Shown: positions 21,722-54,991 of the stretch, in pieces
Layout of the letters: every line of letters begins with the position of its first letter
Position numbering within the stretch: the first letter of the stretch is position 1
DNA from: Promethearchaeota archaeon
Lineage (GTDB): Archaea > Asgardarchaeota > Lokiarchaeia > Sigyniarchaeales > SOKP01
Length of the DNA stretch: 64,000 nt
NCBI GenBank assembly: GCA_048939995.1
Contig: JBHLOY010000013.1
Span: 13,333 to 77,332, forward strand
Reading direction: 5' to 3'
Program-made: the position numbers and the translations under genes
The notes under the pieces: generated by a model
Database searches by the model: none
What the model saw: only the letters and a program-made list of their open reading frames with translations
What the model was told of the DNA's origin: nothing

Positions 21722-22010
21722 TTTAAAACACTGCTTTTAATACTTATACTTATTGTAATTTAATTTATATAATTAACCCTTGCAATAGAACTTTTTCAGT
21801 AATTCTTTTTAACTATTTAATTGAGCTTTGCTCATGGATTTTCAATGAGAGTGAGTATTAATGAAAGAGACTAATGAACCTAAAAAATTGAAACAATAAA
21901 AGATTTACTCAAATTTATATAATCATTTGGTTATAATAATATCAAACAACCAATTAATCCGTAATTATAATTTTTCTGATCTACAATCATTTTCTTTTGA
22001 TTTATACATC

Positions 22011-23558
22011 ATGTCAATAAATAGAAATAAATTATTAATGGAATTATTCGCGAATTTCATACAGGCAAATAAGGAAGTTGAAGCTATTATAGTTTCCGAT
22101 AAAGATGGATTAATAATTTCCGGAGAACGAAGAAAAGATGTGGATATAGAGTTAGTTTCGATAATGACTGCGGTGGTTAACCCTGTTATTGAGCGATTTC
22201 GTGATGAATTTTCCTATAAGAAATTTGGGACCGCAAGTTTTGATACTGAAAATAATCGTCTTTTGTTCATCACTATAACAGAAAATGTAACATTAACTTT
22301 AGTTATTGAAAATCTTGGCTCGATTGAGAAAATAGCCCCCTATGCGTATTTTCTTGCTGAAAAAGTGGCACAGATTATAGTTGCAACTAATGAAGATCTA
22401 ATTGAGGTATCAATTCCTAATTTTGATTATAAAACTGAAGGATATTATGGAAGTGATGCTCAACTTTTTCAAATTGGTTTAGAACCAGGTGGAGAATATA
22501 GATTTAAATTTATAGTTATAGGTGACCATGAAGTTGGTAAGACTTCAATTCTACGTAGATTTGTAGAAGGGAGATTCTTAGTAGATTATCGTACTACTAT
22601 TGGATTGAACGTTTTGACTCATAATTTCGAATTTTTTGGCAACAAAATTAACGTATTTCTCTGGGATATAGGAGCTCAACAATATTTTAAAAGATACCGT
22701 AAAGTTTATTACAAAGGTGCACAAGCTGCTTTTATCATTTTTGATTTAACAAACAAGGATTCTTTTTATAACGTAATGAATTGGTTTAATGAATTGAATG
22801 AGTTTAAGGAACATGAAATCTCAATAGTAGTCGTTGGAAATAAAAAAGATTTAGAACAGCAAAGAGAAGTTGATTATGAAGAGGCAACTACTTTAGCTGA
22901 AATGTTATCTGAAAAATATAACAAGAAAATTTCTTATATTGAAACCAGTGCTTTAACAGGAGAGAATATTGAAGAAGCATTTGGAATTGTATCCTATCAT
23001 TTTATAATGCTAAGCAAAGAATTTGAGGAAAAAAATTTAAGAGAAAAGATTTTTACTGAAATTAATTCGGTATTAGATACACGAAATTCACTTTCAATTG
23101 CATTTATATCAAAAAATTTCCAAAAGAATCCTATTATAATGCTTTTAAAAGAGATAGAACCTTTAGGATTGTCTTTAAAAATGGAAAAAAAAGATAAAGT
23201 GATCTATCAATTTGCAAATGGATTAACCTTGGAAAGTTACAATTTCGATTCAATGAAAGTTTCTGATTCTGATGGAGCTTTTGTAATTTTTGATGGGAAG
23301 GATAGAGATTCCATTGACCCGAAATGGAATAGTATTATATTACAAATTTTAAAAACAATCAAGGATAACACTGTGATTTTAATCGGTATAATTACTAAAA
23401 AAGATGTAAATTGGTCAAAAATGATGAGTGAGTTTAACTTTTATACAAAGTTAGAAGCAAAGCAAATCTCGTATTTTGTATTTAAAATTGACTCCGATTC
23501 TAAAATAGAATTATATGAACACATAAATACTATGTTCAATACTATTAGGAATCTTTAA
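22011..23558 (+). CDS. Roadblock - Rab-like GTPase - degenerate G-like domain fusion
   Basis: AIIVSDKDGLII (roadblock); GDHEVGKTS, TTIG, WDIGAQ, NKKD, ETSA; ATG 22011 preferred to TTG 21927. Confidence 0.88.
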   Translation: MSINRNKLLMELFANFIQANKEVEAIIVSDKDGLIISGERRKDVDIELVSIMTAVVNPVIERFRDEFSYKKFGTASFDTENNRLLFITITENVTLTLVIENLGSIEKIAPYAYFLAEKVAQIIVATNEDLIEVSIPNFDYKTEGYYGSDAQLFQIGLEPGGEYRFKFIVIGDHEVGKTSILRRFVEGRFLVDYRTTIGLNVLTHNFEFFGNKINVFLWDIGAQQYFKRYRKVYYKGAQAAFIIFDLTNKDSFYNVMNWFNELNEFKEHEISIVVVGNKKDLEQQREVDYEEATTLAEMLSEKYNKKISYIETSALTGENIEEAFGIVSYHFIMLSKEFEEKNLREKIFTEINSVLDTRNSLSIAFISKNFQKNPIIMLLKEIEPLGLSLKMEKKDKVIYQFANGLTLESYNFDSMKVSDSDGAFVIFDGKDRDSIDPKWNSIILQILKTIKDNTVILIGIITKKDVNWSKMMSEFNFYTKLEAKQISYFVFKIDSDSKIELYEHINTMFNTIRNL

Positions 23559-26500: not shown

Positions 26501-29500
26501 ATGGAACCTTGGCCTGCATTATTCCATGCTAAAGAGTTGATCGTTCCGCTTAATGCTCCGGTATAGTTATTTACCCCTCCATCAAGCGTATACCAAATCC
26601 TATCTCTATTCGATTCAGTGATAGAAAGACTATAGCTTGGAGGGAGACTACTGAACCATGCTCCAGATAATGGTGAATCGATACTATCTATTGAAGGATT
26701 GATAGTATCTTTATAAATTTGTACGGTATCAGAGGTTTCAATGCCAAAATTGTTGTTTAAATAAAATGTAAGAGTAATAGAACCTTGACCAGCATTATCC
26801 CATGCTGTGGAATCAATTACACCAAACCAAGAATTAGATTGATTAGCATTACTAGTAATAGTATAATTGTTAAGTCCATTATCAAGAGTATACCATATAG
26901 AATCACGATCGTTCCCGCTCACATAAACATCATAATCTGGAATAGATCCAAACCATTCGGCAGTACTAGGTGAATTAATAGAAATTGATAAATCTGAAGT
27001 TTTTGTTACTCCTACACTTGCAGAATCCCAATTACCCAAGGAATCATTTACAAAAAATGTAATCGTGACAGCACCTAAACCAGCATTGCCCCATGCGATA
27101 TAATCAATTGTTCCACTCGTTGCTCCCGTGTAGTTGTTTAAACCATCATTGAGGGTATACCAAATCTCATCTAAATTCGCTTCGGTAATGGAAAGACTAT
27201 AACTTGGTGGGGTTGAATGGTTTGAGCCAGATGAAGGTGAATCGATACTAACTGAAGGTTTGATAATATCTTTTCTAACTATTACTTCTTCATAATTAAT
27301 ATTACCTAATGTATCATTTGCGTAGAATCGAATTATTACTGTTCCATTTGGTCTTCCGTTCCACGTAGTCTGATCGAGACTCCCTATTGCAGCGACAGGA
27401 GTGGAATTAGTGGTTCCACCATCTAAGCTATACCAAATAGAATCTAAATTGGGATCTGTAACTGTAAGATTATAATTAGGCGCCATCGATCCAAATAACT
27501 CATTCGGGTTAGGAGAGTTAATGTTTATATCTGGTGCTGTGGTATCTTCACCTACTTGATATTCAGCTCCAATTGAGTAAAAACTGCTTGGGTCATATTG
27601 ATTGTTGTATTCAGTAGCAATCCAATCTACTGAACGAGCAATATTAGATAATCGAACTTCATCCATGATACCTTCTAAGTTATCAGGACTTCTAGCAATA
27701 GTTAGAGAATCTATTATTGTTTCAATCATTTCTGAAAAAGTGGCCGTATTTGGATCTTGAGTCCCATTAATAAAAATTTTCATTGTATTGCCAACTCTAA
27801 CACATGTGATACTAACCCATTTATTAAGCGAAATCAATGTCTGACTCTTTAAACTAGTTGAACCAATCCCATTTAATCTAAAATAAATAGCTCTATCCCT
27901 ATAAATAAAAGAGGAATAAGCATCAGTATAAATACCTTTGGTTACTGTATCAGGATCATTACTTACATCATATGCCATTACCCAATATTGGATAGTTAAA
28001 TTCTCGGTCAAATCTAATGAAACATCATTTCCACAATCAACATAATCATCGATTCCGTCAAGTTCTAGACTCCCATCAAGTCTTCCAGGAATTTGATCTC
28101 CAGGATCCATCGTTCCATACGAAGTACCATCATTATTGTTGGTTGTGGAATCCTTTATTGGATTTGTAGGATCTTCAGATAAATGCCATACTCCAACATA
28201 ATTAGTATCCCATACTCCATCGGGGTTTTGAATTGAATACATGGTTGAATTTCCATAATACATATAGATTTTAGTGTCTACCATGGGTGAAAGAGAAGGA
28301 ATGCGTACCCAAGATACTAAAAATGCATGTGTTGTATTATGATCTCGATTAAATAATTCAATTTCATGATCAAGCCAATTCTTACCATCATAAAAAGCTA
28401 TATCGTTACCATTAGATTGAACATCAGTATGTAAGTCCATATCATAAAGAGATATTAAAATAGGAAAATTAGTGAGATTACTCGATCCAGAGATTTTAGT
28501 ATGATCAATTATTATTTCTTTATAATATTTAAAGCTATTCAAAGAAGGTCGAAGTAATTCTTCAGTGCTTAGTGTAAGTGTTGGTTCTGGCTCTACAAAT
28601 ATCCTTAAGTAGATATCATCCACAAATAGCGTGTTAAATTCATTAGGTGATGCCCAATAAATACCTGTGGAGAATTTATCGGTTGGTTCAGAACCTAAAT
28701 TAATCGAAGTGTTATGAATCTCTAAGTTACCATCTAACCATAGCTTAGCCAATCCATAACTACTGGAAACGTTAACTTGTACATCCAATGTATGCCAGGT
28801 ACCCTTAGATATAGTGTTGGTCTCTAAATAACCATAGGCTTCTCCTGCAACAGCATTCCACATATATAAAGTCATATCATCATTTATAGTAACACTAATC
28901 AAATTTTGCCATACTGTGGCTGTGTCAACAAACTGTATAACTGTTACCCTGTCTGTAGTACTAAAACTAGGATCAAGATAAATATGTACGTGGGCATAAA
29001 GGCTTGCTTCATCTGGAAAATCCTCAAAAACCATAGCCTGAGGAGTAGTAACATTGTCCATATCACACTTTGCAGCATAATTGCCTGTGTGAACCTGATC
29101 AGTTGATGCTATGATTGAATCCCCTACAGATCCAGTACTATTTCCATCCCATCCGTTCAAATTACCGCTTTCGAAACCATCATAAAAAAAGAATATATTA
29201 CTTGGGTCAACCAACGGGGAATTAGCTAATTTATTGCCGTAGTATAGATAATAATTATTATCAAATGACAAGGCTTGTATTGGTTTCTGGGTTTTAAACC
29301 ATATTTTAGTTGATTCATTGTTCCATGAGGAGTCAAGATCCAACATTCTATCCAGAACATTCCACATAGTGCCATTCCAATATACTAATCGGATATCATC
29401 ACCATCTGCTTGACTTTTACCCTTAATGACCAGATCAGCGTGATCGAAAGTCAAAGAAACTGTATAGCCAGAAGGTATATCAGAACTACCAGTTGTCACA

Positions 29501-30663
29501 GTAACTTTTCTACGATATTTCCAGTTTTGATTAAACCAAGAACCGTATGTTTCTTCAGATTCAAGTGTTAAACTTGGTGATGTTGCGACTAATAACCTAA
29601 TCTTTAGATCATCATAATATGAGGGTATAGTAGTCCAAGTTAAGAAACCAATTTGTCCAGCATTCAAATGAGAAGTATTTGTATTATCAATTCTTAATTG
29701 ATCATCTAAATATATCTTAAATCGTGATCCAAGAGCCTCTACTTTTAAGTTATACCATTGGTCACTCACTAAATTCGATTCATCTACACCATCATAAACA
29801 GGTGTCTCCCAAATACCACCAGTACAATCACCATACGCTACTTCTCTGTCCCAATATCCAATTCCCGCACAATAGAAATTATTTGAGTCAGAGTAACGAA
29901 ATAATATTCCTACTCCAAAACTAATGCCAACATTTTTTATACGGACCTCTATTGATGCATTTTCGACAGTATAGGAATTTAATAAACTTCTACGATCTGT
30001 AAGACCTGAATTTTCGCGATATTCATTATTTATAACAGACCAAGTTCCGCTTATAACCGTCCATCCATTAGCAGGTCCATCAGCCTGTGTAAAATCATCG
30101 TAATAATCATATACTTTACTTTTATTTGTTGGGGGACTACCAGCAACCTCATTACCATAATAGAGATAATAATTAGTGTCAGTAGCACCCACGCTTATGG
30201 AACTTTGAGTTTTAAACCAAATTTGAGTACTAATAGTATTAAAATTTGTTTCATTTACACGATCGAGTTCTAACCATGTCTTATTAGTTGAGTTATACCA
30301 TAAGATTCGAAGGTCATTTCCATCAGCTCGAAGTTTTCCTACAGAAATTAATTCAGCTGAATTAACTGATAAATTAACCGAATATCCTTTAGGAAGAATT
30401 TTCGTATTTACATTTGTAATATTTATTTGAACACGATACATATATGATGAATCCCACCAATTTTTTAAATTTGGTGGTTGACTAGTCTGCAGCTTATCGG
30501 GATAAAAATTATCGCGAGTATTATTGAAACCGTTAATCTTTATAAAATTATCAGCAATATCAATTGTTGATATTATATTACACGCCAAGATAATAGTTAA
30601 AACCAAAATTTTAGATTTAACCTTTTTCAACTTAATTCCTCCATTCTTATACCTATATTTCAT
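23593..30663 (-). CDS. Giant single-pass surface protein: DUF2341/ConA-LamG modules, Ig-like stalk, TM, ~350-aa cytoplasmic domain
   Basis: DGNDLRI, YYLYYGN, YVGVWHL, DEVRLS..WIATEYNNQ; WYTLD/FYxND repeats; GAAIGGVVG TM followed by KKSKSKKK. Confidence 0.85.
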   Translation of the reverse strand: MKYRYKNGGIKLKKVKSKILVLTIILACNIISTIDIADNFIKINGFNNTRDNFYPDKLQTSQPPNLKNWWDSSYMYRVQINITNVNTKILPKGYSVNLSVNSAELISVGKLRADGNDLRILWYNSTNKTWLELDRVNETNFNTISTQIWFKTQSSISVGATDTNYYLYYGNEVAGSPPTNKSKVYDYYDDFTQADGPANGWTVISGTWSVINNEYRENSGLTDRRSLLNSYTVENASIEVRIKNVGISFGVGILFRYSDSNNFYCAGIGYWDREVAYGDCTGGIWETPVYDGVDESNLVSDQWYNLKVEALGSRFKIYLDDQLRIDNTNTSHLNAGQIGFLTWTTIPSYYDDLKIRLLVATSPSLTLESEETYGSWFNQNWKYRRKVTVTTGSSDIPSGYTVSLTFDHADLVIKGKSQADGDDIRLVYWNGTMWNVLDRMLDLDSSWNNESTKIWFKTQKPIQALSFDNNYYLYYGNKLANSPLVDPSNIFFFYDGFESGNLNGWDGNSTGSVGDSIIASTDQVHTGNYAAKCDMDNVTTPQAMVFEDFPDEASLYAHVHIYLDPSFSTTDRVTVIQFVDTATVWQNLISVTINDDMTLYMWNAVAGEAYGYLETNTISKGTWHTLDVQVNVSSSYGLAKLWLDGNLEIHNTSINLGSEPTDKFSTGIYWASPNEFNTLFVDDIYLRIFVEPEPTLTLSTEELLRPSLNSFKYYKEIIIDHTKISGSSNLTNFPILISLYDMDLHTDVQSNGNDIAFYDGKNWLDHEIELFNRDHNTTHAFLVSWVRIPSLSPMVDTKIYMYYGNSTMYSIQNPDGVWDTNYVGVWHLSEDPTNPIKDSTTNNNDGTSYGTMDPGDQIPGRLDGSLELDGIDDYVDCGNDVSLDLTENLTIQYWVMAYDVSNDPDTVTKGIYTDAYSSFIYRDRAIYFRLNGIGSTSLKSQTLISLNKWVSITCVRVGNTMKIFINGTQDPNTATFSEMIETIIDSLTIARSPDNLEGIMDEVRLSNIARSVDWIATEYNNQYDPSSFYSIGAEYQVGEDTTAPDININSPNPNELFGSMAPNYNLTVTDPNLDSIWYSLDGGTTNSTPVAAIGSLDQTTWNGRPNGTVIIRFYANDTLGNINYEEVIVRKDIIKPSVSIDSPSSGSNHSTPPSYSLSITEANLDEIWYTLNDGLNNYTGATSGTIDYIAWGNAGLGAVTITFFVNDSLGNWDSASVGVTKTSDLSISINSPSTAEWFGSIPDYDVYVSGNDRDSIWYTLDNGLNNYTITSNANQSNSWFGVIDSTAWDNAGQGSITLTFYLNNNFGIETSDTVQIYKDTINPSIDSIDSPLSGAWFSSLPPSYSLSITESNRDRIWYTLDGGVNNYTGALSGTINSLAWNNAGQGSITIIFYVNDSAGNWDTASVAIYRDTINPSIDSINSPLSGAWFSSLPPSYSLSITESNRDRIWYTLDGGLNNYTGALSGTINSLAWNNAGQGSITIIFYVNDSAGNWDTASVAIYRDTVNPSIDSIDSPLPGAWFSSLPPSYTLSITESNRDRIWYTLDGGLNNFTGALSGTIDSTAWNTAGQGSITILFYVNDSAGNWDAASVVINRDSITPTIIITEPNNYDLFGISPPSITININDANLDNEWYQLDNGTIVTNNYTWTGAIAQSVWEQVGNGTIMIKFYANDTVGNLGTAEVIVYKDIFFPMIMINTPISDGVYGNTAPNYAVNISGSNLDTSWYTLDNGIVNYTFTGLTGTINQLAWDAKSDGTITISFYINNTLGVIGFDEITIIKDTIAPSIALNFPLNNTYCRAAPIINVLATDANLDLIWYQVNTTNILLGNNINQPFNNLIWNSLPEGRFYVYIYANDTLNHLSDPVLIVLYKDTIAPPAPSLIQAPQGAVSGTLIFEWQDGSDPSGIIKYRLIIDNEANPLATPGFVFAINLTGNYYEYMESLQPGIYYYFLYQIDGAGHQSPAATDSFSITSTSQPSEFPLWIIFVVIGAAIGGVVGIVVLKKSKSKKKEIGIQISEKQPVTKAKLKIYEELSLLDYETLKDKTEADLLARREKVIAYVNKLTEEKDYVKAAGFAGEIIIIEEILGNSQNADFYRQKQIDIAIKGLNYLKDQYEIESKKAAISGDYSKSLELYNESKIVSENLKMYVDNQESKHEQDRKLEITGTPLVMGEVELVYSCINDLLTKYFDEIGIKYYSNPQIYDDIQNKIHGLILFDDQVSFLNIDPSIRDRIRSIQIIYTEDTSNEDIIKSSKDFQNANTLLIIVVIKLLENNESFSFQGPMKNVRINHYKAFIQSIGLKGVYEEAFNEIIDLYYKGQFDILRETHELSEVIIHSTDELLYDLKGKGSVKHELKEYFSR
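25882..26709 (-). repeat. Three tandem 276-bp intragenic repeats (92-aa Ig-like unit)
   Basis: GAAGGATT marker at 26141, 26417, 26693 (period 276). Confidence 0.92.
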
Positions 30664-31103
30664 TCTTGTAAATTTTAAAAATATACAAGAAAGTATATAT
30701 AATATAGTGTATGTTTATTTAAATCTTTCAAAAATAAAGGAGGCACTAATGGAGATAATTCTAAATAAGATCCAAGTAATTAAAGGGAATAAAAGGAGAA
30801 TTTTAAAATAAAAAAACTAAAATTTTCCTTCTTATGTAAACTTTATCGGAATTTATGAAGTAATTAAAAAAGAAATAAATGGTGTAAACGCTTCAGAAGC
30901 AGTTGCAAGGATTTAGGACGGTTAAGAGGACAATTTCAATTTTAAGTTTATACAATTTTATCTTTATTAAGATAGAAAGTACTTATAAAATAATATTAGA
31001 ACCTTAAACTTATGTAAATTAATACTAGGATTAACCTATTAAGAACCTTTAGATAAAAAAAGAAATATCAAAAATAAAAATAGATTTAATATTAAGGTTA
31101 TAT

Positions 31104-34100
31104 TTATCGATGAAGATATTCTTTTAACTCATACATAACTAAACCCTTTTCTTTGAGATCATAGAGTAATTCATCAGTACTATGAATAATTACTTCACTT
31201 AATTCATGAGTCTCACGTAAGATATCAAATTGTCCTTTAAAATAGAGATCGATAATTTCATTAAATGCCTCCTCATACACTCCCTTCAATCCAATTGATT
31301 CAATGAATGCCTTATAATGATTTATTCTGACATTTTTCATAGGACCTTGAAATGAAAAAGACTCATTATTTTCTAGCCATTTAATAACAACAAGGATTAA
31401 GAGCGTATATTCATTCTGAAATTCTTTACTTAATTTAATAATAGCTTCATTAGATGTATCCTCAGTGTAAATTATTTGAATCGATCTAATTCTGTCTCTT
31501 ATTGATGGATCTATATTTAGGAATGAAATTCGATCATCAAAAAGTATTAATCCATGTATTTTGCTTTGAACATCGTCATAGATTTGAGGATTGGAATAAT
31601 ATTTAATACCAACTTCATCAAAATACTTTGTCAGTAAATCATTTATGCAAGAATAAACAATTTCTACTTCTCCCACAACTATTGGCGTTTCCGCTACTTC
31701 TAATTTTCGGTCTTGTTCAAGTTTAGCTTGATTGTCCATATACCTTTTAAGATTTTCTGATACTATCTTACTTTCATTATATAGTTTAAGTGATTTTGAA
31801 TAATCTCCAGATATTGCAGCTTTTTTGGATTCAATCTCATATTGATCCTTCAAATAGTTAAGTCCTTTAATTGCGATATCGATTTGCTTCTGACGGTAAA
31901 AATCTGCATTTTGAGAGTTTCCAAGAATCTCTTCAATAATAATAGTTTCACCTGCAAATTCTGCTGCTTTGACATAATCGTTTTCTTCTGTTAGTTTATT
32001 AACATGAGTAATTACCTTCTCTCTCCTAATAAGTAAATCTGCTTCAGTCTTATCTTTGAGTGTTTCATAATCTAATGATTTAAATTCTTCATATACTTTC
32101 AATTTAGGCTTAGTTATTGGCTGTTTTTCCGTTATTTGAATAGGTACTGCTTTCTTCTTCTTCTTACTCTTTGACTTTTTTAGAACTATAGCTCCCACGA
32201 CTCCACCGATAGCAACTCCTATTACAATGAATATAATCCAGAATGGAAATTCTGATGGTTGAGAACTGGACATTATCGAAAAACTGTCTGTTTCAGCAGG
32301 ACTCACATTACCTGCTCCATCAATCTGATATAAAAAGAAATAATAAGTTCCTGGTTGAAGAGATCCAGTATATTCATAATAATTCCCAGTTATGTTTATT
32401 TCAAATACAAATCCAGGTGTGATCAAAGGATTTGCTTCATTATCTATAATAAGTCTATATCTTAGTATCCCAGAAGGATCAGAACCTTCATACCATTCGA
32501 ATATTAATGTACCACTTACTTCTCCTTGAGGAAAATTTATTAAAATTGGTACTGAGGGAGCAATTGTGTCCTTGTATAAAACTAACAAGATATAGTTACT
32601 CAAATGATTAACAGTATCATTTGCATAGATGTAAACATAAAATTGTCCTTCTGATAAACTATTCCAAATTGAAATATCTAATTGCTGATTGATATTATTT
32701 CCCAGTAATATACTAATTGAGTTAACTTGATACCAAATTGAATCTAGATTTGGATCTATAGCTAATACATTGATCATTGGTGATATTCGACAATATGAAT
32801 TATTCAATGGGAGATTTAATATAACCGATGGTGCTAAAGTGTCTTTTATAATAGTTATCTCATCAAATCCTATAACTCCTAACGTGTTATTTATATAGAA
32901 TCTAATTATTACATCACCATCACTTTGGGCGCTCCATGCTAATTGGCTTATAGTTCCTGTTAATCCTGTAAACGTATAATTAACTAACCCATCATCTAGC
33001 GTATACCACCTTGAATCTAAATTACTTCCACTTACACTAACAATAAAACTAGGTGCTGTACTGTTAAAAACCTCGTTAAAATTGGGATTGTTAATTGTTA
33101 TTATAGGAGCGAAGACATCCTTATAAACTATCACTTCTGCAGATCCTAAATTACCCAGCGTGTCATTTGCATAAAACCTAATGATAACTGTACCATTACC
33201 AACTTGATCCCATACGCTTTGAGCGATAAAACCTGTCCATGTGTAATTATTAGTAATAATAGTTCCGTTGTCCAATTGATACCATTCATTATCTAAATTA
33301 GGGTCATTAATATTTATGGTAATGTCTGGAGGTTCATTTCCAAACAATTCATAATTAGTTGGTTCTATAATAGTAACGGTAGGAGAAATTGTATCTCTAT
33401 TAATTACTACACTCGCAGCGTCCCAGTTACCTGCAGAATCATTTACATAAAATATAATCGTAATAGAACCTTGACCTGCATTATTCCATGCCGTAGAGTC
33501 GATCGTTCCGCTCAATGCTCCTGTGTAGTTATTTAAGCCTCCATCGAGCGTATACCAAATGTTATCTCTATTCGATTCAGTGATAGAAAGAGTATAACTT
33601 GGAGAGAGGTTACTGAACCATGCTCCAGACAATGGTGAATCGATACTATCTATTGAAGGATTAATTGAGTCTCTATAAATTACTACGCTTGCAGTATCCC
33701 AGTTACCCGCAGAATCATTTACATAAAATATAATTGTAATAGAACCTTGACCTGCATTATTCCATGCTATAGAGTCGATCGTTCCGCTCAATGCTCCTGT
33801 GTAGTTATTTAAGCCTCCATCAAGCGTATACCAAATCCTATCTCTATTCGATTCAGTGATAGAAAGAGTATAACTTGGAGGGAGGCTACTGAACCATGCT
33901 CCAGACAATGGTGAATCGATACTATCTATTGAAGGATTAATTGAGTCTCTATAAATTACTACGCTTGCAGTATCCCAGTTACCCGCAGAATCATTTACAT
34001 AAAATATAATTGTAATAGAACCTTGACCTGCATTATTCCATGCTATAGAGTCGATCGTTCCGCTCAATGCTCCTGTGTAGTTATTTAAGCCTCCATCAAG

Positions 34101-37100
34101 CGTATACCAAATCCTATCTCTATTCGATTCAGTGATAGAAAGAGTATAACTTGGAGGAAGGGTACTAAACCATGCTCCAGATAATGGTGAATCGATACTA
34201 TCTATTGAAGGATTGATAGTATCTTTGTAAATTTGTACGGAATCAGAGGTTTCAATACCAAACGTATTGTTTAAATAAAATGTAATCGTATTAGAACCTT
34301 GACCAGCATTATCCCATGCTGTAGAATCAAATATTCCAAACCAAGTATCTGTTAGATTAGCACTACTCGTAATAGTATAATTGTTAAGTCCATTATCAAA
34401 AGTATACCATATGGAATCACGATCATTTCCGCTCACATAAACATCATAATCAGGATTAGATCTAAACCATTCGGCAGCATTAGGTAAATTAATAGAAATT
34501 GATAAATCTGAAGTTTTTGTTACTCCCACACTCGCTGAATCCCAATTTCCCACGGAATCGTTTACATAGAATGTAATTGTGACTGCACCTAAACCTGCAT
34601 TACCCCAAGCTATAGAATTAATTGTCCCACTCAATGCCCCTGTGTAGTTGTTTAAACCATCATTAAGGGTATACCAAATCTTATCTCTATTCGCTTCGGT
34701 AATGGAAAGACTATAACTTGGTGGGGTTGAATGGTTTGAACCAGGCGAGGGCGAGTTGATACTGATTGAAGGTTTAATAATATCTTTCCTAACGATTATT
34801 TCTTTATAACTAATATTACCTAATGTATCATTTGCATAAAATCGAATTGTTACTGTTCCATTACCTAATGCACTCCACATGTTTTGATCAATGGTTCCAC
34901 TAGCGCTAACAGGCGTAGAATTAGTGGCCCCTCCATCTAAGGTATACCAAATAGAATCTAAATTGGGATCCGTAACTGTAAGATCATAATTAGGCGCGCT
35001 CGATCCAAATATATCATTCAAGTTTGGAGAATTAATAGTTATTTCTGGTCCTGAAGTATCTTCACTCTGATATTCAGCTCCTACAGAGTAAAAGCTATCT
35101 GGATCATATTGATTGTTGTATTCGGTAGCAATCCAATCTGCAGAACGACCAACCTGAGAAATCCGAACCTCATCAATTTGTCCTAACCACGGATATGACC
35201 ATGCTACTCCTTCAGGTTGATCTCCATGCCCGATTCTAAAAGAAAACGGCAGAGCACTTACAATATTATTTGTTTTAGATAAGGTGGCAGGATCTGGTAT
35301 TCCATCTACATATATTCTCATTTCAGTTCCATTATATGTAGCAACGACATGATGCCATATATCTGATGAGATGGTTTGTGCAGTTTCTAAATCACTCTCA
35401 TTTCCAGGAAGTTGAAAGCTCATCAACTGACTATTAAGATCCATTACAAGGCGATATCCATTATAAAAACCTTTATGGTTGAGAGGACCCATCCAAGGAT
35501 GAGTTAAAGGATATTTCATCCATAACTGTATAGTTATTTGATTAGTTGTAAGATCTAAGCTTGTATCATTTCCGCAATCGATAAAGTGATCACTAAAATT
35601 TTGGCCATAACCAATAGATCCCGTAACTTTGCTTGGAATATAAGTTATATTTCCTAATCCACCTTGACCATGATTCCCATAGTGACTACTATCTGCATAT
35701 TCATTCACTGTTCCTATTCCTATCTCTTTAAGATGCCAAACTCCAACATAATTTGGATTCCATACTCCCATGGGGTTCTCTTGAGACCCCATCGTTGAAT
35801 TTCCATAATACATAGTGATGTTAGTATCAATTGAAGATGATAGAGATGGAATTCGAACCCAAATAATTAATTGAGCATGAGTAGCACTATAACTTTGATT
35901 GAATAGTTCAATTTCATGATCTAACCACGTATCTCCGCTATAAAAGGCAATATCATCACCATCTGTTTGAGTATGAATATGTAAATCTGAATCAAACAAA
36001 GAAATTAGTACGGGAAAATTAATTAGATCGTTTAATCCAGTTACCATTGTTGAGTTAATTGTTATGACTTTATAATAAGCGAAATAATTCACATTCCGAG
36101 CTAAATTTGTTTCTTCAATTCCCACAGAATAAAAAGATTTAGGATCATTTTGATTATTATATTCGGTGGCAATCCAATCTGCAGAATGTGTTTTACTAGA
36201 AATACGTATTTCATCGTATTTGCCTTCAAAATGACCAAGTTGACTGATATTAACAGAAGCACCCCATAACCAATCCTCCAGTTGAGCTAATTGGGTCCAA
36301 TAGGTATCAACATTAATAATATCAAATGTACTAGGAGATCCATCAAGATACATTGTTACATTTCTGTTAGAATAATTAAATGTAACAATCAGATAATGCC
36401 AGATTCCATTAGTAAAGGGGTTTGTTTTTAAGTTATAATTAAGACTATTTCCTCCCCAGGGATAGAAGAAATTATCTCCATTTTGATTAACAGACCATTC
36501 AAAACCGTCTCTATGATTAGGAGCTATTCTATTAAAACGATTACTAGTAGTCATGATTCTTTGATATTCACCAGTTTTAGACGAATTTACCCAATTAATC
36601 CATAGGGATAAAGTTCCCTCATCGTTTATTGAATTTAAAGATGAACTTCTTGAAATATTGATAAAATCATCAATCCCATCAAAATCATAACCCTTTCCAA
36701 TTTGAGAATTAACTAAATCTATATTATCCATTGAACCATTAGTTATTCCATTATTTCCATGGTATGTACTATCATATACATCATTCATTATTCCAGTTGG
36801 AGCATCATTTAAATGATAAACTCCAACATAATTTGGATTCCATACTCCCATAGGGTTTTCTTGAGGACCCATAGTTGAATTTCCATAATACATATAGATT
36901 TTTGTGTCAGTGGATGTCGAGAGCGAAGGAATGCGAACCCAAGCAATTAATTGGGCATGGGTAATGTTAAAATCTTGATTAAATAGTTCTATTTCGTGAT
37001 CTAACCATTCAATACCATTGGTAAAAACAATATCATCTCCATCTGGTTGAGCATGGTCATGTAAGTCTGAGTCATACATAGAAATTAGTACAGAAAAATT

Positions 37101-38408
37101 AATAAGAGAGCTTGAACCAGAGACTTTGGTATGGTCAATTGTAATTTCTTTGCGAAAATTAAAAGAGTTCACATTTGGAGGGCGTTTAAATGTCGTATAT
37201 TCTCTACTTACTGAATAAAATGAGCTAGGTTCGTATTGATTATTAAATTCCGTTGCAATCCAATCTGCAGAGCATGTTGTATTTAAGAGTCTTAATTCAT
37301 CAATTTTGCCTTTATAGAGTTGTAGGCTAGGACTATCTAAATTTATACCTATAGTAGCATTATTAGCATTAAAATCTATATTGTTAACAAATTCATCAAC
37401 TTGTTTGGAACCATTAATATATAATTTTAGAGTTGTTCCATCATATGTTCCTACTAAATGAGTCCAAATGTTATCATTTATACCATAATCAGAAATGGCA
37501 TATCCCATATTAAGCCCATCACCAATAGCTATTCTTGCATTTCTGCTAGATGATGAATGAAAGCCTTGAACCCTAATCCCTATCTGATCACCCCATGAAA
37601 AACCGCTACAAAAAATTGGAGAACGTGTGTCTATTGTTGTATTAAAAATTCCATTATACCATGTTTCAATGGTGAATGAGTTTATAGGTTTTAATCCTGA
37701 ATTGTTTCCTAAACTTATATAATCATTTCTTCCATCAAATTCTAAACTTCCAGCAATATGTCCTTTTACTTGATCATTACTACTCATTGACCCATGGGGA
37801 GTCCCATGATAAGAGTTGGATGTACTGTCCTTAACTTGAGATATAGATGGATCCTCCTTTAAATGCCATACCCCTTTATAGTTATTATTCCAAACACCTG
37901 TAGGATTTTCTCGAGCGTCCATAGTAGGATTTCCATAATACATAGTGATTTCAGTGTCCACTGATGTAGACAAGGAAGGTATTCGAACCCAGGCAACTAA
38001 ATGAGCATGAGTAGCGCTATAATTTTGATTAAATACTTCAATTTCATGGTCTAACCACTCATTCCCTATTGCAAATGCAATATCATTTCCATTAGATTGA
38101 ACATTTTGTCGTAAATCTTTATCGATAATCGAGATTAATAAAGGAAAATTCGTATGGCTTCCTATACCACTAACTTTCGTATTATCAATAGTTATTACTT
38201 TATAAAAATTGAAGTCAGTATAATTAATAGGAGAATTAGCTAGAGGAATCTTGATATTTAAATTATCTAGATTATTATGTGAGCGATTATTTTTTATAAG
38301 AATGTCTGATAAATTAATAATCGATAATGAACTACACGTAAAAAGGAGAATTAAAATTATAGCTTTAAAATTTACTTTTTTCAACCTACTTACCCTATTC
38401 TTATACAT
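31104..38408 (-). CDS. Paralogous giant surface protein: 3x(DUF2341+LamG), Ig-like stalk, TM, cytoplasmic domain
   Basis: Three KxITI..NF.V/LLIS..WLDHEIE..GVW/YHL..WIATE units; C-terminal half closely similar to 23593-30663. Confidence 0.85.
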   Translation of the reverse strand: MYKNRVSRLKKVNFKAIILILLFTCSSLSIINLSDILIKNNRSHNNLDNLNIKIPLANSPINYTDFNFYKVITIDNTKVSGIGSHTNFPLLISIIDKDLRQNVQSNGNDIAFAIGNEWLDHEIEVFNQNYSATHAHLVAWVRIPSLSTSVDTEITMYYGNPTMDARENPTGVWNNNYKGVWHLKEDPSISQVKDSTSNSYHGTPHGSMSSNDQVKGHIAGSLEFDGRNDYISLGNNSGLKPINSFTIETWYNGIFNTTIDTRSPIFCSGFSWGDQIGIRVQGFHSSSSRNARIAIGDGLNMGYAISDYGINDNIWTHLVGTYDGTTLKLYINGSKQVDEFVNNIDFNANNATIGINLDSPSLQLYKGKIDELRLLNTTCSADWIATEFNNQYEPSSFYSVSREYTTFKRPPNVNSFNFRKEITIDHTKVSGSSSLINFSVLISMYDSDLHDHAQPDGDDIVFTNGIEWLDHEIELFNQDFNITHAQLIAWVRIPSLSTSTDTKIYMYYGNSTMGPQENPMGVWNPNYVGVYHLNDAPTGIMNDVYDSTYHGNNGITNGSMDNIDLVNSQIGKGYDFDGIDDFINISRSSSLNSINDEGTLSLWINWVNSSKTGEYQRIMTTSNRFNRIAPNHRDGFEWSVNQNGDNFFYPWGGNSLNYNLKTNPFTNGIWHYLIVTFNYSNRNVTMYLDGSPSTFDIINVDTYWTQLAQLEDWLWGASVNISQLGHFEGKYDEIRISSKTHSADWIATEYNNQNDPKSFYSVGIEETNLARNVNYFAYYKVITINSTMVTGLNDLINFPVLISLFDSDLHIHTQTDGDDIAFYSGDTWLDHEIELFNQSYSATHAQLIIWVRIPSLSSSIDTNITMYYGNSTMGSQENPMGVWNPNYVGVWHLKEIGIGTVNEYADSSHYGNHGQGGLGNITYIPSKVTGSIGYGQNFSDHFIDCGNDTSLDLTTNQITIQLWMKYPLTHPWMGPLNHKGFYNGYRLVMDLNSQLMSFQLPGNESDLETAQTISSDIWHHVVATYNGTEMRIYVDGIPDPATLSKTNNIVSALPFSFRIGHGDQPEGVAWSYPWLGQIDEVRISQVGRSADWIATEYNNQYDPDSFYSVGAEYQSEDTSGPEITINSPNLNDIFGSSAPNYDLTVTDPNLDSIWYTLDGGATNSTPVSASGTIDQNMWSALGNGTVTIRFYANDTLGNISYKEIIVRKDIIKPSISINSPSPGSNHSTPPSYSLSITEANRDKIWYTLNDGLNNYTGALSGTINSIAWGNAGLGAVTITFYVNDSVGNWDSASVGVTKTSDLSISINLPNAAEWFRSNPDYDVYVSGNDRDSIWYTFDNGLNNYTITSSANLTDTWFGIFDSTAWDNAGQGSNTITFYLNNTFGIETSDSVQIYKDTINPSIDSIDSPLSGAWFSTLPPSYTLSITESNRDRIWYTLDGGLNNYTGALSGTIDSIAWNNAGQGSITIIFYVNDSAGNWDTASVVIYRDSINPSIDSIDSPLSGAWFSSLPPSYTLSITESNRDRIWYTLDGGLNNYTGALSGTIDSIAWNNAGQGSITIIFYVNDSAGNWDTASVVIYRDSINPSIDSIDSPLSGAWFSNLSPSYTLSITESNRDNIWYTLDGGLNNYTGALSGTIDSTAWNNAGQGSITIIFYVNDSAGNWDAASVVINRDTISPTVTIIEPTNYELFGNEPPDITININDPNLDNEWYQLDNGTIITNNYTWTGFIAQSVWDQVGNGTVIIRFYANDTLGNLGSAEVIVYKDVFAPIITINNPNFNEVFNSTAPSFIVSVSGSNLDSRWYTLDDGLVNYTFTGLTGTISQLAWSAQSDGDVIIRFYINNTLGVIGFDEITIIKDTLAPSVILNLPLNNSYCRISPMINVLAIDPNLDSIWYQVNSISILLGNNINQQLDISIWNSLSEGQFYVYIYANDTVNHLSNYILLVLYKDTIAPSVPILINFPQGEVSGTLIFEWYEGSDPSGILRYRLIIDNEANPLITPGFVFEINITGNYYEYTGSLQPGTYYFFLYQIDGAGNVSPAETDSFSIMSSSQPSEFPFWIIFIVIGVAIGGVVGAIVLKKSKSKKKKKAVPIQITEKQPITKPKLKVYEEFKSLDYETLKDKTEADLLIRREKVITHVNKLTEENDYVKAAEFAGETIIIEEILGNSQNADFYRQKQIDIAIKGLNYLKDQYEIESKKAAISGDYSKSLKLYNESKIVSENLKRYMDNQAKLEQDRKLEVAETPIVVGEVEIVYSCINDLLTKYFDEVGIKYYSNPQIYDDVQSKIHGLILFDDRISFLNIDPSIRDRIRSIQIIYTEDTSNEAIIKLSKEFQNEYTLLILVVIKWLENNESFSFQGPMKNVRINHYKAFIESIGLKGVYEEAFNEIIDLYFKGQFDILRETHELSEVIIHSTDELLYDLKEKGLVMYELKEYLHR
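33396..34223 (-). repeat. Three tandem 276-bp intragenic repeats
   Basis: GAAGGA marker at 33655, 33931, 34207; long identical stretches between copies. Confidence 0.92.
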
Positions 38409-48777: not shown

Positions 48778-51700
48778 CTAAACTTCAGGAATTAAAATGA
48801 CAAAATTATCTCCTTCTACCCATATTCGCCCATTGTAATTATTTAAAATACGCACTACTAAGAGAAAGCCTAAAATTATTTCTTTAATTCTGCTATTTTG
48901 AATTCCTTTCTGAAAGATCATATGTTTCTCTATATTTGAGATTTCTTTTTTATAGTCAACAAATTTTATTTTAACATAATTTAGGTCATTTTCTTCACTT
49001 CTATTAATAATGATTTTAAAATTAATTGAAGGTTTTTTACTATATCTAATCGAGCTTATAAGAATATTAACAATCACATCTATTAGAAACTTATCAGCTT
49101 TTACATATAAGCGCTCAGTGGGGTGTTCAACTATTATGTTAATTTTTTTATTAGTATAACTACTAGTTATAAAATCTATAACATCATCAATAATACTATA
49201 TAGATCTACTTTTCCAATTACAATTTTAGCTTCATTAAGTACTGTTAATTTTTGTATTATGTATATTAAAAGTTGTGCGTTTATACATTGACTCTTTATA
49301 CTATCTAATAATTCTCCTGAAATTTGTGGAAGAAATTGATTATCTCGTTTGAAATATTCATCTAATGATGATTGAAGGGTACTTATTATATTATTCATGT
49401 CATTAACAAATAATTCTTTATAGAAATACTCTCTATCAAATTCTTCATGGAAAGATTCTTCACTAGAACGTAAATTATCTTCAGCTAACTTACGCAATAT
49501 AGCATTTTTAAGGATGTCTGAAAAAATACCTAGTATTTCAAGATTTCCTTCATTCCAGTAATCTTTTTCTGATAAATTATCAAAACAAATTATACCTTCT
49601 AATTCATCGTTAATTTTTATTGAAAATACCAGTATATCTTCAACATTTTGCTTTTCAAGGAAGCCTTTAAAACTGTTAGCGTAATAAGGAAGTTTAGTAA
49701 CTTCATTAATATAAAAGTGGTCAGAGGTCTCTAATTTCTCAATTACCCATGGAAAATTGTTTATTGATATAAATGGAGGTAATTCAATTTGAGGATAAAT
49801 CAATTTACCATACCAAAGATAATTTCTTCTCATGAAATTATAATTATTACTAAAAATATAAATATAGGCTCGAGCAGCATTAAGAAATTCTCCAATCTCT
49901 CTAAGAGAATCGTAAATAGCTTGGTTAAAGTCTTTTAAACCAACAAATCTCGAAATAATTCTCGCAAGAATACCTTCTAACTTAGAGATTGACTTGAGAT
50001 CCTGCTCTGTCTTTTTTTGCTCTGTTACATCATGACAAATTATTTGATAGAACGTTTCATTACCAATCTCGACAAAAGATGATTGCATATTTACCCAAAT
50101 GAGATTTCCATCTTTCTGATAAAGCTGAATTTCCAATGGTGGAAAATCTGTATTTCTCTCTTCTTTTTTAAACCTATTAAGAACCTCTATTAGATAATTT
50201 TCATGTAATATCGAAAGATCAACGAACTTCTTCCCTATTAATTCTTCCCTTGTATAACCCAAAGTTTTTTCTAAAGCAGGATTGCAATCAACTATGGAAC
50301 CATTTGGATTAATTAAAAGAATTGAAAAAGGTGAATCTTTAAATAGATGACGATATCTAATTTCTGAGTTTTTTAGTTTAATTTCAGCTTCCATTCTTTT
50401 ACTAATATCTCGAATTATGTATTGAATGAAGACCTGTCCTCCCATTTGAACTTCACTTACACTTATTTCAACCGGAATTAGGTTACCCGCATTATCTACA
50501 ACATCTAATCTTAAAGGAAGTGGATTATTAAGTTCATCGAATATTTCAGCATTAAAGTCTATGTTAATTATATCACTTAGTAATTGATTTGAATGGGATC
50601 CAATAAAATCTTCAAAAGGACGTTGAAATAATTCTTCTGCTTGTTCATTAGCATCTATTATAATTCCTGATTTTTTATCAATTATTAAAATTGCATCTCG
50701 AGCAGCCTTAAATAAAACCTCATATCTTAATTCAGCAATTTTAAGTGCTTCAATTGAAGGTTTATATATATCAATTTGATGAATTATGGTACTATGAGTC
50801 TCTCTAAGAACGTCTAGTACTTGAGTATTATTTAAATAGTTATTTTTTATGTGATCAAATTGTTTAAGAATAAAATGACTAAATTGGTTTATAATAGTTT
50901 TCGGAATCTTATCATTGTAATAAATTATTAATGATAAAGGTAATATGCCCCCTCTAATACTTTCATCGGCTACATAATCAAAATAAATCGCAGCATTTGA
51001 ATTTAAGTGAGGAAATGGTAAAATTACTGAAGCGCGCTTAAATTCTCCTCCTCCAAAAATATATTGTGAAATTGAAAAGCTTTTTACAGATATTAGTTCA
51101 GGATTCTCGAAAGCATCTTTAGGGTAAACTTCTTCGATCTTAACTCCTAAATTCTCGTCCCATCGACAAAATATTATCCCAATCTCTCTTCTTGGGGTAT
51201 AAGTTTCAATCCTCTCTGCTATTTTAAGCGAAAGCCAATTAAATGCTTCATCAATATTAATATTATTAACTCCGCTTGTTAGGAAGTATTTCAATGGGGT
51301 TTTTCCGAGTTTTTCCAAACCCATAACTTCTACTAGGTCATTTATATTTGGTTCTTCCAAATCAATCTTATTAAAGAGAATGAGAAGAGGCAATTCACTT
51401 AATTCTGGCATCGCTACTACTTCATGTAATAGTTTACGTGCATCCGGAAATTTTATTTTATCTGTAATATCTAATACAAAGACCAAACCATCTTGTCCTT
51501 TTAGATAAGGTTTCCATATTTCCTTAAATTTTGTCTGTCCAGGCGTATCATAAGTTAGTAATGATACGTTATTAACTAAGAATCTTGAAATATCAACACT
51601 TATGGTTGGAAATAATGTTTTTGATACTGATTTTCTTCTTGTTCGAATAATAGTTGTTTTTCCTGCCAATGAAAGTCCAAAAAGTAAAATTTTTGCCTCC

Positions 51701-52146
51701 TTTTGCTCAAATATGACTTGTTCTTCTGGAAAAGATAAATTAAAAGTGTTTAACAGCTCTTTGATTTCTTCTAACTTTTCTCGATCTCCTTGATAAACTT
51801 GAGAATCCACATAAAAAGCTTTATAGGCTTTTTTAATTTTACTAAATTCTTCCACAAATCCTTCTAAAAGCTCTTGAGCTAAAGTGCTTTTAATTTTATT
51901 TTTATTATCAACTATTATTGATATTAAAAGGCGTTCCTTTTTTGTTCTTGAATATTTACTTGGTATATCAAACAATAAATTAGCCGTTTTAAAAGTTCCA
52001 AACATATGAATAAAAAAACCATGGTCATAAAGCTCTATTAAGGTCGGTACTTGCTTAATATCCTCCCTTTCAATTGTTTCAGGCACTTTTAGAAACATAT
52101 ATGGGGGGAAAAACGGATTCCGGTGACTCAGCATTAAAATTCTCAA
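48778..52146 (-). CDS. Multidomain signalling protein: longin/uDENN-like, Arf-like GTPase, longin/uDENN-like, PAS-PAS, GAF, degenerate HisKA/HATPase
   Basis: GLSLAGKTT, DTPGQ, NKID, TSG; IIFCRWDENLGVKIEEVYP; IIDANEQA..RDIS, DCNPA..HDVT; RAYIY..GIICFD; LFVNDMNN. Confidence 0.85.
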   Translation of the reverse strand: MRILMLSHRNPFFPPYMFLKVPETIEREDIKQVPTLIELYDHGFFIHMFGTFKTANLLFDIPSKYSRTKKERLLISIIVDNKNKIKSTLAQELLEGFVEEFSKIKKAYKAFYVDSQVYQGDREKLEEIKELLNTFNLSFPEEQVIFEQKEAKILLFGLSLAGKTTIIRTRRKSVSKTLFPTISVDISRFLVNNVSLLTYDTPGQTKFKEIWKPYLKGQDGLVFVLDITDKIKFPDARKLLHEVVAMPELSELPLLILFNKIDLEEPNINDLVEVMGLEKLGKTPLKYFLTSGVNNINIDEAFNWLSLKIAERIETYTPRREIGIIFCRWDENLGVKIEEVYPKDAFENPELISVKSFSISQYIFGGGEFKRASVILPFPHLNSNAAIYFDYVADESIRGGILPLSLIIYYNDKIPKTIINQFSHFILKQFDHIKNNYLNNTQVLDVLRETHSTIIHQIDIYKPSIEALKIAELRYEVLFKAARDAILIIDKKSGIIIDANEQAEELFQRPFEDFIGSHSNQLLSDIINIDFNAEIFDELNNPLPLRLDVVDNAGNLIPVEISVSEVQMGGQVFIQYIIRDISKRMEAEIKLKNSEIRYRHLFKDSPFSILLINPNGSIVDCNPALEKTLGYTREELIGKKFVDLSILHENYLIEVLNRFKKEERNTDFPPLEIQLYQKDGNLIWVNMQSSFVEIGNETFYQIICHDVTEQKKTEQDLKSISKLEGILARIISRFVGLKDFNQAIYDSLREIGEFLNAARAYIYIFSNNYNFMRRNYLWYGKLIYPQIELPPFISINNFPWVIEKLETSDHFYINEVTKLPYYANSFKGFLEKQNVEDILVFSIKINDELEGIICFDNLSEKDYWNEGNLEILGIFSDILKNAILRKLAEDNLRSSEESFHEEFDREYFYKELFVNDMNNIISTLQSSLDEYFKRDNQFLPQISGELLDSIKSQCINAQLLIYIIQKLTVLNEAKIVIGKVDLYSIIDDVIDFITSSYTNKKINIIVEHPTERLYVKADKFLIDVIVNILISSIRYSKKPSINFKIIINRSEENDLNYVKIKFVDYKKEISNIEKHMIFQKGIQNSRIKEIILGFLLVVRILNNYNGRIWVEGDNFVILIPEV

Positions 52147-52761: not shown

Positions 52762-53484
52762 GTGGCAATAAATTATGACTATCTTTTTAAGACAATTGCT
52801 ATAGGAGATGGTGGCGTAGGTAAAACTGCATTAACTGTAAGATTTTCAACGGGATTATTTGCTGAAGATTATAAAATGACAATTGGGGTAGACTTTCATG
52901 TTAAAACACTTCCTATAGAAACGACTGAAGGTACATTTAAATGCAAATTACAATTATGGGATACTGGAGGGCAAGAAAGGTTCAATGCAATCAGACCTGT
53001 TTATTATCGAGGTTCTTCAGGGGGGGTGTTAGTTTTTGATCTTACTAATTATTTAAGTTTTAAGCATCTTCCTCGATGGATAGAAGAGGTTCGGACTAAT
53101 ACAACCAGTAATATCCCTTTATTACTTGTAGGTAATAAAAGTGATCTATCAGAGCTAAGAACTGTCTCGATTAGAGAAATCAATGAGTTTACTAAAGATT
53201 CCAACCTTTATTATATGGAAACCTCAGCTAAAACCGGTGAGGGTGTTGGAGATTGCTTCTATATCATGGCATGTCTTATGATTGGGGCTGGAGTGCCTGA
53301 AAAATTAATAGCCAGTGAAACCGTTTTTAGTCCAGGGAGAATCACATTAAAAGAGCATCCAGTATCTAGCCCAACACATAAACCTCCATCTGATGATAAG
53401 CTTCTTTTTCCTTCTATTTTTAAACCTCCAGATGATTTAGGTTTTGATACTAAAGCAAGTAAAAATAAAAAAAGTAGGAAGTAA
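52762..53484 (+). CDS. Rab-like small GTPase with Pro-rich tail
   Basis: YDYLFK, GDGGVGKT, YKMTIGVDF, WDTGGQERF, YYRG, GNKSD, ETSAK. Confidence 0.95.
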   Translation: MAINYDYLFKTIAIGDGGVGKTALTVRFSTGLFAEDYKMTIGVDFHVKTLPIETTEGTFKCKLQLWDTGGQERFNAIRPVYYRGSSGGVLVFDLTNYLSFKHLPRWIEEVRTNTTSNIPLLLVGNKSDLSELRTVSIREINEFTKDSNLYYMETSAKTGEGVGDCFYIMACLMIGAGVPEKLIASETVFSPGRITLKEHPVSSPTHKPPSDDKLLFPSIFKPPDDLGFDTKASKNKKSRK

Positions 53485-54439: not shown

Positions 54440-54991
54440 TTGTTAAATAAAATGAAAAAAGATAATGAAAAGAACATATTTGACGATGTTTTAAAAAAAC
54501 TTTTGGCAGCTATCCCGGAAATAAAAGCCGCAGCAATAGTTTCTGCTGAAGGACTTCCCGTTGCTTCAGCGCTGCCCCGTAATTTAGATGAGGTAAGAGT
54601 AGCCGCTATGACTGGTGCTTTACTCTCCTTATCTGAAAGGGCTATTATCGAGATGAATAAAGGCGATTTTGATCAATTCTATATTAAAGGAAGCAATGGT
54701 TATCTCTTAATTCTACAAATTAATCCTGATTTAGCGTTAATAGTATCAGCAGATAAAGATGTTCGTCTTGGTCTAGCATTATTAGACTTAAGACGTACAT
54801 TTGGAGGGGATGATTTTCCATATCCGTATATATTCAAACCACCAGGACCAGGAGATTTAGGAGCTGTATCTCAAGCCCAAATAAAACCCAAAGTTAAGGA
54901 ATCAGGATATAAAACCTACTGTCAATATTGTGGTAAAGAAATCCTAAAAGAGGAGCAATTTCATCATAACTGCAGAAAAAAACCTAAATAG
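54440..54991 (+). CDS. Roadblock/LC7 protein with Pro-rich linker and zinc-ribbon tail
   Basis: AAAIVSAEGLPVASALP, RVAAMTGALLSLSERA, IKGSNGY, VRLGL; CQYCG..HHNC. Confidence 0.92.
   Translation: MLNKMKKDNEKNIFDDVLKKLLAAIPEIKAAAIVSAEGLPVASALPRNLDEVRVAAMTGALLSLSERAIIEMNKGDFDQFYIKGSNGYLLILQINPDLALIVSADKDVRLGLALLDLRRTFGGDDFPYPYIFKPPGPGDLGAVSQAQIKPKVKESGYKTYCQYCGKEILKEEQFHHNCRKKPK

Follow-up and report, generated by a model that had tools for sequence, protein, structure and literature searches.

We analysed a 64,000-nucleotide stretch of the genome of a Promethearchaeota archaeon (contig JBHLOY010000013.1, positions 13,333 to 77,332; hereafter the window), focusing on a gene whose product joins an Arf-like GTPase, two flanking longin domains, a PAS-PAS-GAF sensor region and a histidine-kinase-like tail. 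We propose, as an even call, that this protein acts as a soluble one-protein switch in which the sensor gates a GTPase-activating protein (GAP) built from the longin pair, which would use Arg67 on the fused Arf-like domain. Support comes from the folds of the longins, from the paired loss of Arg67 and the catalytic glutamine of the GTPase in two homolog lineages, and from the decay of a kinase that was alive when the fusion formed.

Architecture of the fusion protein

The protein lacks a transmembrane segment (top 19-residue hydropathy, 1.45). Contigs of runs X1 and X4, from two studies, gave depth in 30/30 bins, and no indel was listed within the open reading frame; no RNA data set was listed as containing the stretch. 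With depth from two studies and about 120 homologs of the same architecture, the gene is not an assembly artefact, and the earlier concern that the arrangement might be unique to this assembly proved unfounded. Its features are as follows.

48778-52146, minus strand: whole longin-Arf-like GTPase-longin-PAS-PAS-GAF-pseudo-histidine-kinase gene; single open reading frame, TTG start, 1122 residues
51709-52146, minus strand: longin domain 1, probably of the NPRL2/folliculin class, residues 1-146; model predicted local distance difference test (pLDDT) 93; PP replaces the GP motif
51946-51948, minus strand: Arg67, between strands beta4 and beta5 of longin 1; possible arginine finger acting on the fused G domain
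51205-51708, minus strand: Arf-like small GTPase domain, residues 147-314; Pfam Arf at 146-307, E 1.6e-32; G1-G5 intact
51535-51537, minus strand: Gln204, the switch-II catalytic glutamine; some lineages of homologs have Lys, His or Tyr instead
50737-51204, minus strand: longin domain 2, residues 315-470; model pLDDT 89; Trp-Asp at 329-330; Arg398 in the beta4-beta5 loop
50377-50736, minus strand: PAS domain 1, residues 471-590, by Pfam
49999-50376, minus strand: PAS domain 2, residues 591-716; PAS_9 at 607-709
49462-49998, minus strand: GAF domain, residues 717-895; Pfam GAF at 741-883, E 3e-4
48781-49461, minus strand: pseudo-histidine-kinase, with DHp-like helices and a HATPase_c-like domain; Pfam HATPase_c at 1020-1120, E 3e-4, sub-threshold
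49402-49404, minus strand: Asn915 at the phospho-histidine position, in the motif LFVNDMNN at 912
49054-49056, minus strand: Ser1031 at the N-box asparagine position, in the motif NILISS at 1027
48943-48957, minus strand: DYKKE at residue 1064 in place of DxGxG (G1)
48865-48876, minus strand: ILGF at residue 1091 in place of GxGL (G2)

The GTPase domain carries GLSLAGKT at 157, PT at 180, DTPGQ at 200, NKID at 259 and TSG at 290. It matches Pfam Arf far better than Ras (E 2.5e-15), and its best matches in the PDB are Arf1 and the Asgard protein GerdArfR1 (8oun). The original prediction had read an intact Arf-like G domain here, and both the Pfam match and the G1-G5 motifs bear this out. The N-terminal membrane-binding amphipathic helix of the Arf family was not found, a longin preceding the G domain instead. 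In the model, the last helix of longin 2 is long and continues into PAS1, where His518 is conserved in 117 of 121 homologs. The GAF domain is missing in homologs of ~830 and ~950 residues. A search of the PAS and GAF domains for diagnostic cofactor motifs found none.

The flanking longins resemble those of GAP complexes

Both flanks were modelled with high confidence as longins of beta-beta-alpha-beta-beta-beta-alpha-alpha topology, and comparison of each domain by Foldseek and VIA upheld the longin folds proposed earlier. The two had also been described as related. This stood for the fold, with longin topology in both models; by sequence no relationship was detectable (BLASTP E 6.9; hhalign E 0.028, probability 1.8). 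The segment IIFCRWDENLGVKIEEVYP, found at residue 324, lies in the start region of the second longin.

The highest Foldseek ranks went to GATOR1/SEAC chains, the Lokiarchaeota longin 8yqg and Lst4, a GATOR1 chain being best for longin 1 (E 2.5e-5). VIA Z scores for longin 1 were 12.7 with 8yqg_B, 12.5 with the folliculin complex (6nzd_H), 11.3 with GATOR1, 9.8 with C9orf72-SMCR8 and 9.5 with DENND1A; for longin 2 they were 16.0 with 8yqg_B, 12.9 with Lst4, 12.3 with the FLCN complex, 11.6 with GATOR1, 11.2 with C9orf72-SMCR8 and 9.0 with DENND1A. Atlas rows for longin 2 named Folliculin, NPR2, SMCR8, C9orf72 and Avl9, in agreement with Foldseek and VIA. When searched with sequence profiles, the longins gave no significant match in the PDB or Pfam (best Pfam match Folliculin, E 0.007, from 2/54 members), and Atlas feature searches gave no usable match or leads below 0.9 (NPR2 in 19% of one cluster).

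Several local features accompany these folds. By position in the models, Arg67 and Arg398 both lie between beta4 and beta5, where the arginine finger of longin/DENN GAPs is located (10.64898/2026.01.05.697756). Strand 1 of longin 2 closes with Trp-Asp, present in 117 of 121 ungapped rows; the ARF1 GAP activity of C9orf72-SMCR8 needs SMCR8 Arg147 together with Trp33-Asp34 of C9orf72, from the other longin. Basal homologs, and 94 of 102 ungapped wider relatives, keep the GP motif of GAP longins, which sits before strand 2 and is reportedly missing from adaptin, TRAPP and DENND longins (PMC12290439). No cDENN/dDENN core is present: longin 1 leads directly into the G domain and longin 2 into PAS, and the entire chain is assigned. 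On the strength of the models, the flanks are probably longins of the GAP class (FLCN, NPRL2, SMCR8) rather than of the guanine nucleotide exchange factor (GEF) class. A complex prediction of both longins with the G domain and GTP scored 0.06 against a mark of 0.32 and weighs neither way.

Arg67 and Gln204 are both lost in two homolog lineages

Position 204 is occupied by Lys in ~50 homologs and by His or Tyr in 8. Arg67 follows this variation closely. It is retained in all 61 homologs with Gln204 and in 4/4 with His, and lost in 40 of 50 with Lys204 and in 4/4 with Tyr204, where Lys, Asn, Gly, Thr, Leu or Pro substitutes for it. We compared the 81 columns whose conservation among the diverse Gln proteins reaches at least 95%. 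Of these, Arg67 is the most relaxed in the Lys group and also, jointly with one other column, in the Tyr group. The Lys group is less diverse than the Gln group (80% versus 54% identity), yet Arg67 is more relaxed there. Groups without Gln204 keep Arg398 and the G1, G2 and G4 motifs.

On a tree made without these two columns, the Lys and His/Tyr lineages are separate, and basal members of each still have Arg67. All 18 changes at position 67 are confined to these lineages, and two Gln204 proteins nested inside the Lys clade carry Arg67. Gln204 was lost first and Arg67 afterwards in both lineages; the window protein has both residues. The pattern of co-loss suggests that Arg67 is a finger for the protein's own G domain, that is, a built-in GAP.

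Other observations weigh against a built-in GAP. The differences in Z score between GAP-class and GEF-class longins are small, at 1-3 units, and the canonical GP motif is not found in this protein, whose first longin has PP and whose second has GV at this place. The linker between longin 1 and the G domain is just a few residues long and may bar action in cis. There are two independent Gln-loss lineages only, and an independent-pairs test, with 3 pairs, was not significant. Stand-alone longin-GTPases keep the arginine even with a degenerate G domain, and three proteins that keep the glutamine have no arginine; because the wider longin-GTPase family departs from the Arg/Gln rule in this way, the arginine is not generally tied to a fused GTPase. 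Arg398 is retained regardless of the state of Gln204 and would therefore have another job.

A live kinase joined the fusion and decayed later

Aligned with motif-complete homologs, the tail has lost all four catalytic motifs (His, N-box Asn, G1 and G2). The kinase module had been called catalytically dead, and every motif string quoted for it (Asn915, Ser1031, DYKKE and ILGF among them) is present in its stated role. The tail derives from a DHp and HATPase_c kinase, since it matches the motif-complete kinases C22 and C38 of its own genome (E 9e-33 and 3e-25). Among 115 aligned tails, 25 retain the histidine, and the full four-motif test is passed by P0097, P0101 and P0111 alone; P0101 and P0111 have Asp for the first Gly of G2, and P0123 resembles P0101. 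In P0122 a Tyr stands at the phospho-histidine position with the N, G1 and G2 boxes intact. The Caulobacter protein DivL has Tyr at the phospho-histidine position together with intact ATP-binding boxes. P0122 is 2317 residues long and has the same kind of longin-GTPase-longin head, which continues into many PAS and GAF domains.

On a tree of the tails, decayed members form a single clade (support 97), with motif-complete members outside it, beside stand-alone kinases of the window's genome that are themselves motif-complete; on a tree of the N-terminal part, motif-complete members likewise fall outside the main decayed clade. Because motif-complete homologs exist outside the decayed clade, the alignments and trees indicate that the fusion joined a live kinase and that decay came later. 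The original prediction of a GTPase grafted onto a dead kinase has to be revised on this point. Within the decayed clade G2 is gone throughout, and the N-box, G1 and His were lost piecemeal. Several independent kinase deaths could not be established, as the N-terminal tree points to two but the decayed tails fall into one clade on their own tree. Among 64 close homologs the dead CA-like domain is 72% conserved, comparable to the longins, which argues for a kept structural role. His900 (49447-49449), 15 residues upstream of the lost phospho-histidine, is kept in 112 of 115 tails.

A candidate mechanism

The built-in GAP that we favour could work as follows. The tail, which would no longer productively bind ATP or transfer phosphate, would serve as a dimerising, signal-relaying scaffold. 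A small-molecule or redox input at the PAS/GAF domains may shift the helix linking PAS1 with longin 2. The longins would pair with each other as in FLCN-FNIP or C9orf72-SMCR8, with longin 1 giving Arg67 as an arginine finger to its own Arf-like domain, in the same chain or in a partner subunit, and longin 2 helping to hold that domain through the WD motif. In this way the sensor would control how fast GTP is hydrolysed, and an effector would read the GTP/GDP state as the output. A GTP switch had been suggested earlier as the likely output; we infer the same, alongside the intact G domain and the dead kinase.

We hold a fuller version tentatively, and find it somewhat doubtful: the protein would be an Arf GTPase gated by its own sensor and complete in itself, carrying on one chain a functional longin-pair GAP of the C9orf72-SMCR8/FLCN type. 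It would be the first Arf GAP of archaea whose substrate is known, and the family would record a series from longin-GTPase through double-longin GTPase and live-kinase fusion to kinase death, and finally to loss of the hydrolysis pair in two lineages.

Alternative roles for the longins and the tail

It is unlikely, in our estimate, that the longin pair acts in trans, as a GAP or scaffold for another GTPase of the Rag, Rab or Arf kind. Arg398 would then provide the finger, and the fused G domain would be an allosteric, nucleotide-dependent gate on that activity. Such a role would account for the presence of Arg398 in ~97% of homologs, with or without Gln204. Potential substrates are at hand in the ~70 open reading frames of the 3.75-Mb genome that match the G domain, and in a Rab-like gene that lies divergently adjacent in the window and at loci L004 and L027. 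However, loci further removed (L024-L026 and L028-L031) lack this neighbour, and the joint pattern of Arg67 and Gln204 favours the fused domain as the target. Action in trans and a built-in GAP can hold together.

Signal flow in the reverse direction, as in DivL, seems improbable. The pseudo-kinase would then be the input, binding a phosphorylated response regulator or pairing with an active paralogous kinase, or else the output, with the GTP state controlling phosphorelay partners. DivL provides a precedent (PMC4211667), and 8 receiver matches were found in the genome, along with motif-complete kinases of the tail's subfamily. In the tail, 44 positions, His900 included, are at least 97% conserved among the 64 close homologs; for motif-complete members, the kinase must have served as output in the ancestor, and the longin-GTPase block, lying upstream, as its input. 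On the other side, the DHp region and GAF are the least conserved parts (60% versus 70-80%), no receiver gene was found nearby, and no response regulator was present among the called genes at eight homolog loci. Many relatives also stop after the PAS domains, kinase-free; the longin-G-longin-PAS unit therefore does not need the tail to work.

The original prediction had instead cast the flanks as GEF-like DENN domains. Built-in GEFs in the manner of Mon1-Ccz1, TRAPP or DENND1, loading the G domain with GTP upon sensory input, are distinctly improbable. Longin dimers are chiefly GEF platforms (PMC10933270), and DENND1, Mon1-Ccz1 and TRAPP chains do appear in the fold lists at Z 7.4-9.5. This role is weakened because the fold ranks, in which GAP-class longins stand ahead of DENND1A, the missing cDENN/dDENN core, the finger-position arginine in both longins, the WD motif, and the GP motif of basal members and wider relatives all favour GAP-class longins. 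Lastly, we think it very improbable that a dispensable fusion is slowly decaying, having lost its kinase, its GP motif and, in some lineages, the catalytic pair of its GTPase without gaining a new function: stepwise motif loss and a patchy presence would fit, but length and frame are held (~1123 residues in dozens of genomes), G1, G2 and G4 are intact, and each domain is 60-80% conserved.

The module occurs almost solely in one family of Lokiarchaeia

Residues 1-470 as a query returned 134 proteins, mostly of ~1123 or 950 residues and with the same domain order. Most homologs carry Promethearchaeota or Lokiarchaeota names, which together with the genome place the window in Lokiarchaeia. A profile of longin 2, used to scan draft genomes with ten candidates scored per genome, found the module in 56 of 379 Asgard genomes. 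Besides the genome of the window itself, these were 54 of the 128 further members of its family and 1 of 14 from a sister family; the remaining 236 gave no match. Presence within the genus is patchy (13 of 41 genomes). NCBI labels of Hodarchaeota, Thorarchaeota and Odinarchaeota on homologs with 70-80% identity were distrusted, as the module falls in two GTDB families of one order. Representatives form a modular series of 315-residue longin-GTPases (many), longin-GTPase-longins of 470-480 residues, proteins with PAS-repeat ends and proteins with kinase-module ends; the stand-alone 315-residue longin-GTPases are the nearest wider relatives.

Since almost all genomes with the module belong to one family of Lokiarchaeia, we regard the module as probably a derived, late and lineage-specific rewiring, not an ancestor of eukaryotic signalling. 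The suggestion that it marks an intermediate towards eukaryotic GTPase signalling is not supported by this distribution.

Two groups of relatives depart from the common layout. P0117, P0126 and P0121 (630-641 residues) follow longin-GTPase-longin with a Cys-rich CxxC...CxxC tail that has no Pfam match, instead of PAS. Among the stand-alone longin-GTPases P0143-P0256, many have a degenerate P-loop or G3 and retain the longin GP and arginine motifs; these are possible pseudo-GTPase-bearing GAPs.

Relation to known systems

Published accounts already outline both longin-GTPase fusions and fusions of NPRL2-type longins to two-component proteins. Liu et al. (bioRxiv 10.1101/2020.10.19.343400, Fig. 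5c) report many NPRL2-like longin fusions to two-component domains in Asgard archaea. Like our protein, these place an NPRL2-like longin on a prokaryotic two-component sensor, with eukaryote-like regulators on a prokaryotic signalling core. Their text describes no Arf between two longins, dead kinase or finger analysis; their Fig. 5c may draw the architecture. The window protein also shares an Arf-like G domain, with an N-terminal longin replacing the amphipathic helix, with Asgard longin-GTPases, ArfR and AArf proteins (PMC10933270, PMC11914678, 10.1101/2024.02.28.582541), to which it adds a second longin, PAS/GAF domains and a pseudo-kinase. The literature searched, with figures and subscription papers outside its scope, held no text on a longin-Arf-longin-sensor-pseudokinase chain, graded kinase decay or Arg/Gln co-loss.

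The longin GAP complexes C9orf72-SMCR8, FLCN-FNIP/Lst7-Lst4 and GATOR1 NPRL2-NPRL3 act on ARF1, RagC/Gtr2 and RagA, respectively. The window protein resembles them in its two same-class longins, a beta4-beta5 arginine, a WD ending strand 1 in one longin and a candidate substrate of Arf type. It differs in carrying longins and GTPase in one chain, with no DENN core, an arginine in both longins, a degenerate GP and sensor domains downstream. Avl9-type monomeric DENN GAPs also have a longin beta4-beta5 arginine finger, which in Avl9 acts on Arf (10.64898/2026.01.05.697756), but Avl9 binds its GTPase via a cDENN subdomain that our protein lacks. By analogy, the protein may be likened to DivL (PMC4211667), a multi-PAS protein with a kinase core kept without kinase activity; unlike it, DivL reads DivK~P and has no GTPase, whereas the window protein lost all four motifs and leads its chain with the GTPase-longin block. 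Judged from its motifs, the protein at best works like a fused C9orf72-SMCR8-ARF unit, and appears to belong neither to the DENN GEFs nor to the active histidine kinases.

These comparisons bear on how Asgard GTPases are regulated. No convincing GAP or GEF for Arf emerged from a structural survey of Asgard archaea (PMC11914678), and Asgard GTPases, being rarely in operons, are hard to match to regulators (PMC10933270). GP and Arg motifs have been seen in Asgard longins, and the GAP activity of these longins is an explicit open hypothesis (PMC12290439). With a candidate regulator and its substrate on one soluble chain, the window protein offers a single-protein test of Asgard Arf regulation. 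Natural variants are at hand, with Gln and Arg intact, Gln lost or both lost, and with the kinase alive or dead. How these GTPases are regulated bears on whether longin GAP chemistry is older than eukaryotes. No ancestral step is shown by the fusion itself, because it is late and restricted to one lineage. In sum, the system is real, conserved, lineage-specific and partly anticipated in the literature, with GAP function as a candidate role.

Neighbouring genes and further observations

The Rab-like GTPase gene (52762-53484, plus strand; Pfam Ras E 3.6e-50) is divergent from the fusion gene. Two genes beyond it lies a roadblock protein gene (54440-54991, plus strand), and the tails of both products have an IFKPP...DLG motif. 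A conserved operon was considered and rejected: the hydrolase, Rab-like and GNAT neighbours are common to the closest relatives only and differ elsewhere.

Elsewhere in the same genome, a gene at C17:327051-328010 (G000, minus strand) encodes a receiver with a C-terminal longin-like domain of the same kind and adjoins two histidine kinase genes. From its domain content, it is a second tie between two-component signalling and these longins in the genome.

Three further loci in the window caught our attention. A plus-strand gene at 55301-57793 encodes a signal-anchored protein with GH25, two C-type lectins, Amidase_6 and SH3, a bacterial cell-wall hydrolase layout in an archaeon. Two tandem 2400-residue proteins with DUF2341 and LamG occupy 23593-38408 (minus strand), and a 543-residue Ras-family fusion at 21927-23558 adjoins this pair.

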